A stretch of 64,000 nucleotides of DNA from the NCBI GenBank assembly GCA_964387845.1, contig CAYLXA010000001.1, positions 224,001 to 288,000 of the forward strand. Direction: 5' to 3'. A model generated the notes under the pieces. It was not told where the DNA came from, ran no database searches, and saw only the letters and a list, made by a program, of their open reading frames with translations. The translations under genes were made by a program, and so were the position numbers. This document shows, one piece after another, positions 5,521 through 53,497 of the stretch. Origin of the DNA: an uncultured bacterium (lineage in GTDB: Bacteria; Omnitrophota; Omnitrophia; Omnitrophales; Abzuiibacteriaceae). The first letter of the stretch is position 1. Every line of letters begins with the position of its first letter.

Positions 5521-5565
5521 TGGTAGCGGGGGCCGGATTTGAACCGACGACCTTCAGGTTATGAG
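5521..5565 (-). repeat. Displaced 3' half of tRNA-Met, including an encoded CCA. This is the attR-side direct repeat of the island.
   Basis: The 42-nt stretch 5524..5565 is identical to 53424..53465, the 3' half of the intact tRNA-Met. It is preceded on the minus strand by CCA and sits next to the integrase. Confidence 0.8.
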
Positions 5566-5647
5566 TGCCCCACTCGTTCTTGTTACTTTTGTTTAATTTT
5601 GCTTAACTCTTGTTGTTATTATGAGTTAATTGAAATGGTTTTTGTTG

Positions 5648-6877
5648 CTAGTTCTTACAATTGTTTCTTATTTGTGCTGGTTTTGTTAGCACCATGTTAG
5701 CACGGCTTCCAAAAACTTCTTCATCCAATCTCTTCCCTACACCTTCATAAACAACCGGTAGCAAGTGTCCATATCGGTCAAGTGTTGTCTGAATAGAAGC
5801 ATGCCCTAATTGCGACTGAATAAGCTTAATATTTTCCCCCTGTGAAATCAAGAGGGTCGTGTAAGTATGTCTAAGGTCGTGAAACCGCACCCTTCTTAAT
5901 CCAGCCTTTTTGAGAGCACTAGAAAAATCCCGTTTCACCAAATTATCGGGATCCAGCGGATCGCCGTTTACATTGCAAAATATCAGATCGTGAAGTTTGG
6001 GAGGGAACAACTCACGGTATAAATTCAGTCCTTTCTCTAGAACTTTCGACATAACGATTGTTCTTATAGACCTTCTTGATTTTGGTGTAATAAATTTCCA
6101 ACGGTTACAATTCGTTTCTTTAATTTCGCGCCAACAGCGCCAATATAAACTCCTTCTCACGAAAATTATCTTCCGATTCCAGTCGATGTCTTTCCACTGG
6201 AGACCAAGCAACTCCCCTCTTCTCATCCCCGTCAGCACAGCTGTTAAAATGATGGTTCTTAGAGGTTCATCAGAGTTCTTTAAGAGAAGTCTGATATCTT
6301 GCGGTGTAAGAAAATCCATTTCTCTTTGCTCTTCTCGAATTCTGTCAATATCTGCCGCTGGATTTTCAAAGATATATTTCCATTTTCGAGCATGATTAAA
6401 CATGGTTTTTAAAAGGGACAGGTGGTGATTTACCGTCTTGGCGCTTCTTTTATCGTTTAACTCTGAAATGAATTTCTGAATATCATGCGGACGGATACCT
6501 AAAATAGCTCGGTCTCCCAACGCCGGAACAATGGTTGAATTAATCATTGACTCATAATTTCGGAATGTTGAGTCTTTAATAGAAACTCGAGCATAACTGT
6601 CTAGCCATTTCTTTGAAAATTCGGAAAACAAAATCTTGGGTGGCGCAAAGAAAGTTCCTTTATTAACGGATGAGAGTATTTCACTCAGCCTAGCCTCTGC
6701 GTCCTTTTTCTTCGGGCCAATGCGTTCCCACTTTTGCAAACGGCCTGACCTGAATATGATATAGTAGGCTGCTGATTGATGGCTGCATTTGCCGACACCG
6801 TCAGTCGCGTTTTTCCTGCATTTTCCACACCGCCATACGATACTACCTCTTGCCATGACTGCCTCCAGGATTAGCAA
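5648..6877 (-). CDS. int: Tyrosine-type site-specific integrase
   Basis: The C-terminal catalytic region HDLRHTYTTLLISQGENIKLIQSQLGHASIQTTLDRYGHL carries the R..H..R..Y motif. The gene is adjacent to the att repeat. The last ~10 codons read through a TGTTAGCAC repeat. Confidence 0.9.
   Translation of the reverse strand: MLILEAVMARGSIVWRCGKCRKNATDGVGKCSHQSAAYYIIFRSGRLQKWERIGPKKKDAEARLSEILSSVNKGTFFAPPKILFSEFSKKWLDSYARVSIKDSTFRNYESMINSTIVPALGDRAILGIRPHDIQKFISELNDKRSAKTVNHHLSLLKTMFNHARKWKYIFENPAADIDRIREEQREMDFLTPQDIRLLLKNSDEPLRTIILTAVLTGMRRGELLGLQWKDIDWNRKIIFVRRSLYWRCWREIKETNCNRWKFITPKSRRSIRTIVMSKVLEKGLNLYRELFPPKLHDLIFCNVNGDPLDPDNLVKRDFSSALKKAGLRRVRFHDLRHTYTTLLISQGENIKLIQSQLGHASIQTTLDRYGHLLPVVYEGVGKRLDEEVFGSRANMVLTKPAQIRNNCKN
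5685..5706. promoter_or_regulatory. Direct repeat TGTTAGCAC-N4-TGTTAGCAC. The same motif recurs at the other island end, so this is a candidate arm-type integrase-binding site.
   Basis: tgttagcaccatgttagcacgg here; tgttagcaccgtgttagcacgg at 53332..53353. Both lie just inside the att repeats. Confidence 0.4.
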
Positions 6878-6907
6878 GATTTATTGTACCGTATTTCGGT
6901 CTATTTA

Positions 6908-7117
6908 TCAACGCTTTCTTACAGGACGGCCGGCTTTTCTCCGTGTTTGAAGGTAATATCTGATGGAAGGCTCTTCTATAAGCCAGATTTTCGCGGTGTT
7001 CGTTATTTGCGCTTCCCTGCCCCTGATTAATCGCTTTCGAAGTAGGCGACGCAGATAACCCGGTGTCAATTTGTACTTCTTTGATGCTTCGAGTGTCGTT
7101 AGCATGACGTTTGCCAA
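6908..7117 (-). CDS. Small basic helix-turn-helix protein of the excisionase/AlpA type
   Basis: 69 aa. A YLRRLLRKRLI..G HTH sits next to the integrase. The C-terminus is basic. Confidence 0.45.
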   Translation of the reverse strand: MANVMLTTLEASKKYKLTPGYLRRLLRKRLIRGREAQITNTAKIWLIEEPSIRYYLQTRRKAGRPVRKR

Positions 7118-7131
7118 AAGAAATATTTGCC

Positions 7132-7329
7132 TTATGATACATTATTTCTGCTCGTTTGGAAGAACCTTATTACCTCATCCTGATTGAAGCGAACGTACTT
7201 TCCCATCTTGATATGCGGAATTGCCTTTTGGCCCAAGCGTGTACGCTGATAAATCCACGTTTTAGGAACTCGCAATACTTTTGAAAGTTCACTAACTGTG
7301 ACCAAATTCTCAGACTGATTTCGTATCAT
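7132..7329 (-). CDS. Excisionase-family DNA-binding protein (HTH_17/AlpA-like). This is the probable recombination directionality factor.
   Basis: LVTVSELSKVLRVPKTWIYQRTRLGQKAIPHIKMGKYVRFNQDEV matches the Xis/AlpA pattern. Confidence 0.6.
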   Translation of the reverse strand: MIRNQSENLVTVSELSKVLRVPKTWIYQRTRLGQKAIPHIKMGKYVRFNQDEVIRFFQTSRNNVS

Positions 7330-8076
7330 TTAGGATTGCCCCGGCAAACGCGCATTTAACTCGCTATATGTCTGCATATCACCGATATCCTTCCAAATGC
7401 CTTCAATGCGCATTGCCACAGTCGGAACCATTCTATAAAGCCATGTAATGAAATCGCCGATCCTGTCGGGCTCATGCTTGTAGATTTTTAGATACTTATA
7501 AATCATGAAAGGAATTTCTTTCGGCAACAAGTAGACTCCAGCGCTCACTAAAGTCGATTTTGGCGCGCGGGGCTTTTCATCAAAACTTGTAATAATATGG
7601 TCTTCGTTCATTTCAATGACGCCGTACTTCTTGGCTTGTTCAATATTCTTAATGTCATAGCAAGCCAACACCGGTTTTGGCAGATGATGAAGCGCCTGCA
7701 GGATGAAATGATTCAGGGGGTAATCAAAATAATTGTCACTCGCCAAGACCAAATACTCCGAACCTCTCACTCGGGAGTCGCAGACTGCATAATAAAGGTC
7801 TAAAACAGCGCCGTTTCTTTCGTCATTGGAATTTATCCCATTATTCAATATATGAATTGGAAACACGTATTTTTGAAATGACTTCCAATACACAAATTGC
7901 TCATAAAACCGGTTGTTCGTCACAATCAAAACAGAATCTGGTTTAGTCTTGGCGACATTTTCCATCAAATGCTCCAACAGGTATTTACCACCAATATCAA
8001 GCAGCGCTTTAGGCTTACCGAGAGTTAATGGATAAAGCCTTGTCCCAAATCCTCCCGCGAGAATGATCGTGTTCAA
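7330..8076 (-). CDS. Sugar-phosphate nucleotidyltransferase (glucose-1-phosphate thymidylyl/uridylyltransferase-like)
   Basis: MNTIILAGGFGTRLYPLTLGKPKALL is the NTP_transferase signature. The stop overlaps the start of the next gene. Confidence 0.7.
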   Translation of the reverse strand: MNTIILAGGFGTRLYPLTLGKPKALLDIGGKYLLEHLMENVAKTKPDSVLIVTNNRFYEQFVYWKSFQKYVFPIHILNNGINSNDERNGAVLDLYYAVCDSRVRGSEYLVLASDNYFDYPLNHFILQALHHLPKPVLACYDIKNIEQAKKYGVIEMNEDHIITSFDEKPRAPKSTLVSAGVYLLPKEIPFMIYKYLKIYKHEPDRIGDFITWLYRMVPTVAMRIEGIWKDIGDMQTYSELNARLPGQS

Positions 8077-53152: not shown

Positions 53153-53168
53153 TTCCTCAATAGTTAAA

Positions 53169-53220
53169 AGTCTAATTTAGTCTTAATTAGTCTTAATTAG
53201 TCGCTAATATAACTAATATC
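53169..53220. repeat. Tandem degenerate 10-mers (TCTTAATTAG x ~4) immediately upstream of the HTH-REC gene
   Basis: tctaatttag tcttaattag tcttaattag tcgctaatat, read directly from the sequence. Confidence 0.5.
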
Positions 53221-53331
53221 TCGGACAAGTCAACAAAAACTTTAAAAAAATTTTCATCGATCTGTCAAGTCTGACATAGACCACGTCTTTGATGATAAGC
53301 GAGAAGCATGTGTGGTGAGTTTTTCAAGGTT

Positions 53332-53353
53332 TGTTAGCACCGTGTTAGCACGG
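53332..53353. promoter_or_regulatory. TGTTAGCAC direct repeat, the attL-side copy of the candidate arm-type site
   Basis: tgttagcaccgtgttagcacgg; compare 5685..5706. Confidence 0.4.
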
Positions 53354-53371
53354 AGTGATATTTGGGCACAA

Positions 53372-53416
53372 ACAAAAAAATAGCCATCGATGTAACTATC
53401 GATGGCTATTTTATTT
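53372..53416 (-). terminator. Terminator hairpin downstream of tRNA-Met
   Basis: 13-bp perfect inverted repeat AATAGCCATCGAT/ATCGATGGCTATT flanked by A- and T-runs. Confidence 0.55.
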
Positions 53417-53423
53417 ACGAAAC

Positions 53424-53497
53424 TAGCGGGGGCCGGATTTGAACCGACGACCTTCAGGTTATGAGCCTGACGAGCTACCGGGCTGCTCTACCCCGCG
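53424..53497 (-). tRNA. tRNA-Met (anticodon CAT), initiator-like, with no encoded CCA
   Basis: The reverse complement reads CGCGGGGTAGAGCAGCCCGGTAGCTCGTCAGGCTCATAACCTGAAGGTCGTCGGTTCAAATCCGGCCCCCGCTA. It is near-identical to E. coli tRNA-fMet, has a C1 mismatch, and the anticodon loop is CTCATAA. Confidence 0.85.

Follow-up and report, generated by a model that had tools for sequence, protein, structure and literature searches.

In a 64,000-nucleotide stretch of DNA from an uncultured bacterium of the Omnitrophota (hereafter the window; positions 224,001 to 288,000 of contig CAYLXA010000001.1, assembly GCA_964387845.1), positions 5566-53423 very probably constitute an integrative and conjugative element (ICE) of 47,858 bp (47,900 bp with one copy of the core) that is integrated in an initiator-like tRNA-Met gene. 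The window is part of a 409-kb NCBI contig that belongs to a metagenome-assembled genome (MAG). An earlier note, made from the sequence alone, had proposed an ICE at this tRNA, and the analysis described here supports that interpretation, as one of a putative ICE. Protein families were assigned by Pfam and NCBIfam scans, unannotated open reading frames (ORFs) were compared with PHROGs, known defence systems were checked for with PADLOC, and RNA genes were searched for with Rfam and ARAGORN. The coordinates of all features are collected in Table 1.

The tRNA gene and the 42-bp direct repeat

ARAGORN detected a single tRNA gene in the window, a tRNA-Met(CAT) on the minus strand (53423-53498). 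The corresponding Rfam match (53424-53497, 60.9 bits, with the 1:72 pair marked as non-canonical) was the only one obtained in an Rfam scan of the window. A repeat search identified a 42-nt segment that recurs in direct orientation at 5524-5565 and 53424-53465 (42/42 identical), and all coordinates that had been given for this repeat and for the tRNA in the earlier note were correct. If up to three mismatches were allowed, each half of the repeat matched exactly two sites in the window, and two matches were obtained in none of 100 shuffled sequences. Read in the sense of the tRNA, the repeat is CTCATAACCTGAAGGTCGTCGGTTCAAATCCGGCCCCCGCTA, and its identity begins exactly at C32, where the anticodon loop starts, and ends at the discriminator base A73, as expected for an att site of the anticodon-loop type. 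By analogy with other sites of this type, strand exchange probably takes place within the 7-nt anticodon loop and the remaining identity serves to rebuild the gene. Both copies share the orientation of the tRNA; copies that were not co-oriented with it had been named beforehand as grounds for abandoning the proposal.

The two copies differ in the bases that follow A73. In the tRNA sense, the orphan copy reads ...CCCGCTA-CCA-tcgc (positions 5521-5523 are tgg on the plus strand), whereas the intact gene ends in ...CCCGCTA-GTT-tcg and does not encode CCA, which is the difference that the earlier note had described. A promoter-like TTGCAA-17-TATAAT (53549-53521) is located 5' of the tRNA on the chromosomal side. 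The features of an initiator tRNA that are present include the CAU anticodon (ARAGORN), C1 opposite U72 with no Watson-Crick pair at 1:72 (Rfam alignment) and A11:U24 in the D stem (GAGC...GCTC, read from the sequence). Initiators are expected to have three G:C pairs at 29-31:39-41, and two of the three pairs are G:C here (A29:U41, G30:C40, G31:C39; stem UCAGG/CCUGA), which makes "initiator-like" the right wording. Variants of this kind in the anticodon stem of initiator tRNAs are known in some bacteria.

Integrase and attachment sites

A tyrosine integrase had been assigned to the gene beside the distal repeat copy. Its ORF ends at position 5648, 82 nt from the repeat, and the protein matched PF00589 with 97.8 bits (cutoff 27.1) in addition to SAM-like N-terminal domains. 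The motifs RRGE, HDLRH, GHAS and RYGH (R...HxxR...H...Y) are present, and the PDB matches comprised the catalytic domains of Tn1549 Int, XerA/XerH and lambda Int. In the 64 kb there are only four exact copies of the 9-mer GTGCTAACA, arranged as two tandem pairs with 11-bp spacing and all on the minus strand. One pair is found in the last 60 nt of int, in agreement with the arm-type-like repeat reported earlier within the integrase frame, and the second is found at the opposite end of the island. In the predicted circular form (attP), the pairs would flank the core on both sides in a lambda-like arm layout, and their placement suggests that they are probably bound by the integrase as paired arm-type sites. 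No Pfam arm-binding domain was detected in integrase residues 1-80. Residues 1-70 (window 6650-6856) contain a CGKC...C-x-H insertion, possibly a zinc ribbon, that sits in a short beta-sheet/helix, arm-binding-like region without Pfam coverage.

The first gene inside attL encodes a fusion of a helix-turn-helix (HTH) domain of the HTH_17 family with a receiver domain (204 aa in the Logan gene call). This protein is a candidate recombination directionality factor or regulator. A further reading, that the fusion is a phosphorylation-controlled excisionase, is doubtful. Three tandem 10-bp repeats (GACTAATTAA, GACTAATTAA and GACTAAATTA; 53173-53202, minus strand) were observed in an operator-like position, just 3' of a promoter-like TTGACT-16-TATATT and 5' of the fusion gene.

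Homologues of the integrase in metagenome contigs were at most about 31% identical over the whole protein, and two matches reached 56% over about 40 residues. Each of the distant homologues (L087-L098, 24-31% identical) is encoded no more than about 200 bp away from a gene for a tRNA (Leu, Ser, SeC, Met or Tyr) and is convergent with it. By contrast, int of the window is co-directional with the tRNA and is located at the end that is distal to the intact gene. The homologues were rejected as evidence on the present att site, as they are convergent with various tRNA genes.

Transfer genes and composition of the island

A type IV secretion system (T4SS), a coupling protein and cargo are encoded between the two repeats, in line with the earlier reading, and were recognized by Pfam and NCBIfam matches. 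The genes for the integrase, VirB4, the type IV coupling protein (T4CP), the VirB2-, VirB9- and VirB10-like proteins and the MobC/Replic_Relax protein are all intact ORFs. The VirB4-like ATPase also matched TIGR02746 (TraC-F-type, E 1.6e-75, under the equivalog cutoff). Its nearest plasmid relative is the VirB4 of Myxococcus stipitatus pYRE, which is 25.7% identical and is encoded in a broadly similar gene order. The coupling protein matched NCBIfam SXT_TraD with E 1e-34.

The putative relaxase is a 243-aa protein that matched Replic_Relax (PF13814) with 30.4 bits (cutoff 25.3) and the NCBIfam model MobC_subf (MobC family replication-relaxation protein, E 2e-15) with 56.6 bits, far under the cutoff of 200. 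In 16 metagenome homologues (47-80% identity) the residues P148, D149, E162, E164 and N165 are invariant. An AlphaFold2 model (pLDDT 89) predicts a winged helix followed by a nuclease-like core of the order alpha-beta-beta-beta-alpha-beta, in which one strand begins with PD and the following strand carries ExE, and weak Foldseek matches to the nucleases Bax1, Can2/Cdn1 and R.BspD6I were obtained. The ORFs that were scanned included no HUH, MOBH or MOBT relaxase.

An element with a core of about 45 nt (CTTGTTACGAAATG.C.GTTTTTGCACAACATCTATGAG) is near-identical at 19404-19483 and 26631-26710. The latter copy precedes the operon of a 135-aa protein, the MobC-like protein and the T4CP, and the former precedes the pilin/VirB4 operon and adjoins the gene of a LuxR-type regulator. 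The element is probably a common promoter or operator of both transfer operons.

The island also differs from its surroundings in composition. Its GC content is 42.3% versus 46.1% and 47.3% in the flanks, and its tetranucleotide profile correlates less well with that of the flanks (0.66-0.86 per 5-kb window) than the two flanks do with each other (0.93). Every island protein tested formed a singleton 90% cluster among approximately 15 billion sequences.

Syntenic relatives and the ancestry of the CCA end

Housekeeping genes frame the island as had been described, with uppP/BacA on one side and DivIC/FtsB and enolase on the other. The nearest named uppP homologues (66-70% identity) belong to Omnitrophica and Syntrophales MAGs. 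The closest available relative is the JGI contig Ga0268299_1000877 (L099), whose uppP homologue (P0002) is 80% identical and whose gene order is purN-ORF-eno-ftsB-(~560 bp)-lipoprotein-uppP-hemN-like-msrA-MgtC-metH. This contig aligns to window positions 1-5381 and 53589-62598 at 73-78% nucleotide identity. No alignment of L099 to positions 5566-53423 was obtained, and just the tRNA-Met is found between ftsB and lipoprotein-uppP. The island is thus absent at the syntenic site of L099, which represents a different species (the flanks are about 75% identical at the nucleotide level).

A second contig, L104, serves as the outgroup because its uppP is 70% identical to that of the window and 73% to that of L099. 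The contig starts inside the tRNA and reads ...GGTTCAAATCCGGCCCCCGCTA-CCA-TTCTTTTAAAACGACGCAAATGAGC, after which the lipoprotein gene follows. The attR junction of the window, CCA-TCGCTTTTAAATGACGCCAATGAGC, aligns base for base with L104 (T..TTTTAAA.GACGC.AATGAGC spacer). As the tRNA-CCA-lipoprotein junction of L104 matches attR, the CCA and the spacer are chromosomal and ancestral, which bears out the earlier suggestion that the original chromosomal 3' end encoded CCA. The GTT trailer and the terminator with its 15-bp stem (53412-53377) are the element's own.

The ATG of the lipoprotein gene is located 13 nt past the chromosomal CCA (5510-5523) with no terminator between them, and this layout is kept in L104 (positions 1-60). 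Since the 13-nt gap lacks a terminator and is kept in L104, the tRNA and lipoprotein(-uppP) genes were probably once co-transcribed. The island now parts the tRNA from the lipoprotein gene by 47.9 kb, and the lipoprotein gene is found downstream of int. There is no promoter-like site between int and the lipoprotein gene, and one is located just upstream of uppP (5076-5049).

Further candidates for synteny were set aside. An enolase scan of genome contigs was uninformative, with relatives of at most 71% identity and of mixed phyla among the matches listed, and among these no locus carried this tRNA beside eno. The uppP homologues P0005, P0065 and P0019 were not retained as syntenic relatives, as their neighbourhoods differ.

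Counter-evidence and alternative explanations

A number of observations weigh against a simple integrated ICE. The comparison with relatives that lack the island, which the earlier note had envisaged, came out as expected only in part: the flanks of L099, the only syntenic relative, are adjacent with no island DNA between them, but its tRNA, while 74/74 identical to that of the window, is inverted relative to the ftsB/uppP flanks and is followed by TAC rather than CCA. An 18-nt copy of the tRNA 3' end (TAGCGGGGGCCGGATTTG) is found 111 bp downstream. The history of the locus is more complex than one insertion, and L099 is not a literal empty attB. No circular form and no exact same-species empty attB was seen in the relatives or in the Logan k=31 contigs, which end inside the repeat. 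The Logan sample SRR15237813 contains both host flanks and the island (exact-protein look-ups). Its k=31 contigs break within the tRNA/repeat, the left-flank and island contigs starting 30 nt (k-1) before the CCA/GTT divergence, and they are uninformative on the empty site and cannot confirm the attL and attR joins. The integrated state rests on metagenome assembly across the 42-bp repeat, and the singleton clusters mean that a second copy in another context is unavailable. Homologues of VirB6, VirB8 and VirB11 were not recognized among the island ORFs in the Pfam, NCBIfam and PHROG scans. The relaxase call is weak, being composed of a Pfam match just above threshold, a sub-threshold NCBIfam match and weak fold matches.

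The arrangement in L099 looks like a scar left by some other integrated element, which suggests that the tRNA is a recurrent target; the locus was remodelled more than once, probably through an element with a site of the T-loop type. The inverted tRNA-fMet and the 18-nt copy (L099 9189-9391) are separated by hairpin-rich sequence. A single CTGCTAACA near this remnant was judged to be compatible with chance.

The gaps in the transfer apparatus raise the question of a non-self-transmissible or decaying island, i.e. an integrative and mobilizable element or an ICE remnant that integrated by the same mechanism and no longer conjugates on its own. Such an island is unlikely. In addition to the weak relaxase call and the unrecognized VirB6, VirB8 and VirB11, three ORFs of the T4SS operon have no family match and low-GC cargo makes up about half of the island, all of which would fit decay. 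Nevertheless, the transfer genes are all long intact ORFs, the catalytic motifs of int and both arm-site pairs are intact, and the repeats have stayed 42/42 identical though no selection for tRNA function acts on the orphan copy. Moreover, the MobC-like/T4CP pair together with VirB4, VirB2, VirB9 and VirB10 satisfies the usual in-silico criteria for an ICE.

It is still less probable, and would be surprising, that the integration is an assembly artefact in which a free circular plasmid or an excised ICE with its attP was threaded through the 42-bp match, while the chromosomal tRNA keeps its CCA. The source contig is derived from a metagenome, and the k=31 flank and island contigs of Logan all stop in the repeat, 30 nt (k-1) from the divergence, leaving the graph ambiguous. 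However, normal metagenome assemblers work with k-mers and reads longer than 42 bp, so that such junctions are usually read-supported, the 409-kb contig passes through both junctions, and Pfam scans revealed no recognizable replication or partition genes in the island. Finally, temperate phages, too, typically have a tyrosine integrase next to a tRNA att site, but a prophage or phage-like element is hardly credible, given that a T4SS, a T4CP and a relaxase-like gene are present instead, that the unannotated ORFs gave no capsid, terminase, tail or other PHROG match, and that viral contigs showed no match to the 42-mer, the relaxase profile or the integrase.

Model of integration and its consequences

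In the favoured explanation of an integrated ICE, the tyrosine integrase would recombine attP of the element with the 3' half of the chromosomal initiator tRNA-Met gene. The chromosomal 5' half of the tRNA would thereby gain a 3' half from the element, which does not differ up to A73 and continues with GTT and the terminator. The chromosome's own 3' half, together with its CCA and the abutting lipoprotein-uppP genes, would be moved 47.9 kb away. Because the element-borne 3' half has GTT and not CCA, the rebuilt tRNA must get its CCA post-transcriptionally. After excision, the MobC/Replic_Relax (MOBC-like) nuclease and the coupling protein are predicted to process the DNA, which the divergent VirB-like T4SS would then transfer.

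A more far-reaching idea is that integration and excision form a reversible switch on what is perhaps the sole initiator tRNA gene, by which the templated CCA is removed and dependence on the CCA-adding enzyme is created, the trailer is replaced by the terminator of the element, and lipoprotein-uppP is uncoupled from the tRNA promoter. This idea is regarded as doubtful. More generally, mobile-element turnover at tRNA 3' ends could drive the patchy phylogenetic CCA templating described by Ardell and Hou (PMC5143459), a view that the CCA-less, remnant-flanked tRNA-fMet of L099 would fit. Loss of the CCA is probably tolerated in this clade, as the tRNA of L099 is itself CCA-less, and a strong functional cost or fitness effect of the swap is unlikely because the sister lineage lives with an identical CCA-less tRNA. 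ICEs in tRNA 3' ends, tRNA-Met included, are already well documented (PMC12561888, PMC8627217). Set beside the CCA survey of Ardell and Hou, the swap is a modest curiosity and not a surprise. It provides a clean natural case of a mobile element that would rewrite the 3' trailer of an initiator tRNA, with CCA lost and a terminator gained, and is of relevance to how bacteria gain and lose CCA templating. In addition, the element would represent an ICE lineage that had not been sampled before, found in an uncultured bacterium, with singleton proteins, a T4SS remote from the Myxococcus plasmid system and a MOBC-like relaxase candidate.

Cargo and further features of the island

The cargo (Table 1) includes a DUF4062-STAND NTPase, possibly involved in defence, and an SpvB/TcdB/RHS and Ig-like protein pair with a possible polymorphic toxin function. 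PADLOC reported no known defence system in the cargo and yielded just partial domain-level matches (HTH, methyltransferase, receiver domain). Further cargo genes encode an acyl carrier protein (ACP) and an FG-GAP protein, and a PC4-like small protein is encoded near the transfer module. The N-terminal region of the Amidoligase_2 protein is Cys-rich.

A core of about 66 nt occurs twice on the minus strand (41952-42007 and 50625-50680) with 3-4 differences (89% identity over the 56-nt repeat). The copies precede two cargo operons, one encoding the Ig-like and RHS proteins and the other an ORF, the ACP, a response regulator, a methyltransferase and a histidine kinase. Both copies fold into the same three-way junction with a U-run after each (z -2.0 and -2.7), the outer closing pairs vary (AAAGG/CCUUU versus AAGCG/CGUUU), and the core matched nothing in Rfam. 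A structured leader, a terminator and a small RNA are all conceivable identities for it.

Table 1. Positions of the features of the putative element in the 64,000-nucleotide window
Feature	Position	Strand	Basis
attR: displaced tRNA-fMet 3' half (tRNA positions 32-73, 5524-5565) and chromosomal CCA (5521-5523)	5521..5565	-	repeat; junction kept in L104
Tyrosine integrase, 402 aa from ATG, co-directional with the tRNA fragment	5648..6856	-	Pfam PF00589, PF14659, PF22022
Putative arm-type site pair (GTGCTAACA x2), in the 3'-terminal 60 nt of int; distance to the core 118 nt	5684..5703	-	sequence
Sugar nucleotidyltransferase, HlyD-like protein, GT2 glycosyltransferase, outer-membrane efflux protein (polysaccharide synthesis/export-like cluster)	7330..11814	-	Pfam
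Type IV secretion (mating-pair formation) operon	12084..19430	-	Pfam, NCBIfam
VirB10/TrbI-like	12084-12980	-	TrbI/VirB10 54.2 bits (cutoff 35)
VirB9/CagX-like	12991-14007	-	CagX/VirB9 42.1 bits (cutoff 34.2)
Three T4SS-operon ORFs without family match	15505-16296, 14660-15505, 14004-14663	-	scans
VirB4/TraC-like ATPase	16293-18773	-	PF19044 112 bits
TraL/VirB3-like	18770-19033	-	weak match, E 0.006
VirB2/TrbC-like pilin	19035-19430	-	TrbC/VirB2 34.7 bits (cutoff 27.9)
Promoter/operator-like element 5' of the T4SS operon; second copy (26631-26710) 5' of the relaxase/T4CP operon	19404..19483	-	repeat search
LuxR/GerE-type HTH regulator, between the two transfer operons	19469..19837	-	Pfam
Class-II glutamine amidotransferase and Amidoligase_2 pair, between the T4SS and T4CP operons	20325..22685	-	Pfam
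Type IV coupling protein (TraD/VirD4-like)	23537..25360	-	PF02534 39.9 bits (cutoff 20.1), PF12696 36 bits (cutoff 22), PF10412
Putative MOBC-like relaxase, 243 aa; its end overlaps the T4CP start	25357..26088	-	Pfam, NCBIfam
DUF4062-STAND NTPase, 1304 aa	27005..30919	-	Pfam; no PADLOC match
SpvB/TcdB/RHS-repeat protein, 2070 aa	33980-40192	-	Pfam
Ig-like/Glucodextran_B protein, precedes the RHS gene	40194-41705	-	Pfam
Two-component signalling cluster: three receiver proteins, 7TM histidine kinase, methyltransferase	44423..49831	-	Pfam
HTH_17 (MerR/excisionase-type HTH)-receiver domain fusion, first gene inside attL	52529..53143	-	Pfam/NCBIfam
Second putative arm-type site pair (GTGCTAACA x2), opposite end, 72 nt from the core	53332..53351	-	sequence
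Island-borne intrinsic terminator, 15-bp stem and T-run, begins 11 nt past the discriminator	53377..53412	-	sequence
attL: rebuilt tRNA-fMet gene, core copy 53424-53465, without encoded CCA	53424..53497	-	ARAGORN, Rfam

Comparison with known systems

ICEclc and PAPI-1 are tyrosine-integrase ICEs at tRNA gene 3' ends. Further examples are ICECleSHZ29 and its relatives, which are integrated at tRNA-Met-CAT in Chryseobacterium (PMC12561888), and ICEs of Mesorhizobium, which are integrated at tRNA-Met and other tRNA genes (PMC8627217). The present element shares with them an integrase at one end, direct repeats of the tRNA 3' part, a module of T4SS, T4CP and putative relaxase, cargo, and a tRNA gene that is regenerated upon integration. 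Its repeat of 42 bp begins at the anticodon loop, unlike that of ICECleSHZ29, which comprises 17 bp at the extreme 3' end (PMC12561888). It also differs from the elements listed above in the initiator features of its target, in the lack of close protein relatives, in a T4SS that is about 25% identical to the nearest plasmid system, and in being known from sequence alone.

MOBC relaxases, such as MobC of CloDF13, which acts with the coupling protein MobB, and TraX of pAD1, are related to PD-(D/E)XK nucleases and have been reported from conjugative plasmids, ICEs and mobilizable plasmids (PMC12857230). As in these systems, a small (243-aa) winged-helix and nuclease-like protein is encoded immediately 5' of, and overlapping, the coupling-protein gene, and its PD and E-x-E residues are invariant and located on predicted adjacent strands. 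In contrast to MOBC proteins, E/N and not K is found at the third motif position, the protein scores 56.6 bits in NCBIfam MobC versus a cutoff of 200, and it is a relaxase candidate. The inferred attP has tandem short non-core repeats on both arms, at distances of 72 and 118 nt to the core, which resemble those of lambda-type heterobivalent integrases. Unlike in these, no Pfam arm-binding domain was detected in the present integrase, which carries a CxxC...CxH insertion in its first ~70 residues, and arm binding is predicted.

Ardell and Hou (2016) reported that 74.1% of initiator tRNA genes template CCA, which is unusually often (PMC5143459). The word stems 'integrat', 'horizontal' and 'island' are absent from the main text of that study. 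The ancestral chromosomal gene of the present case belongs with the CCA-templating majority (PMC5143459), and the case differs in that the templated CCA appears to have been overwritten by a mobile element.

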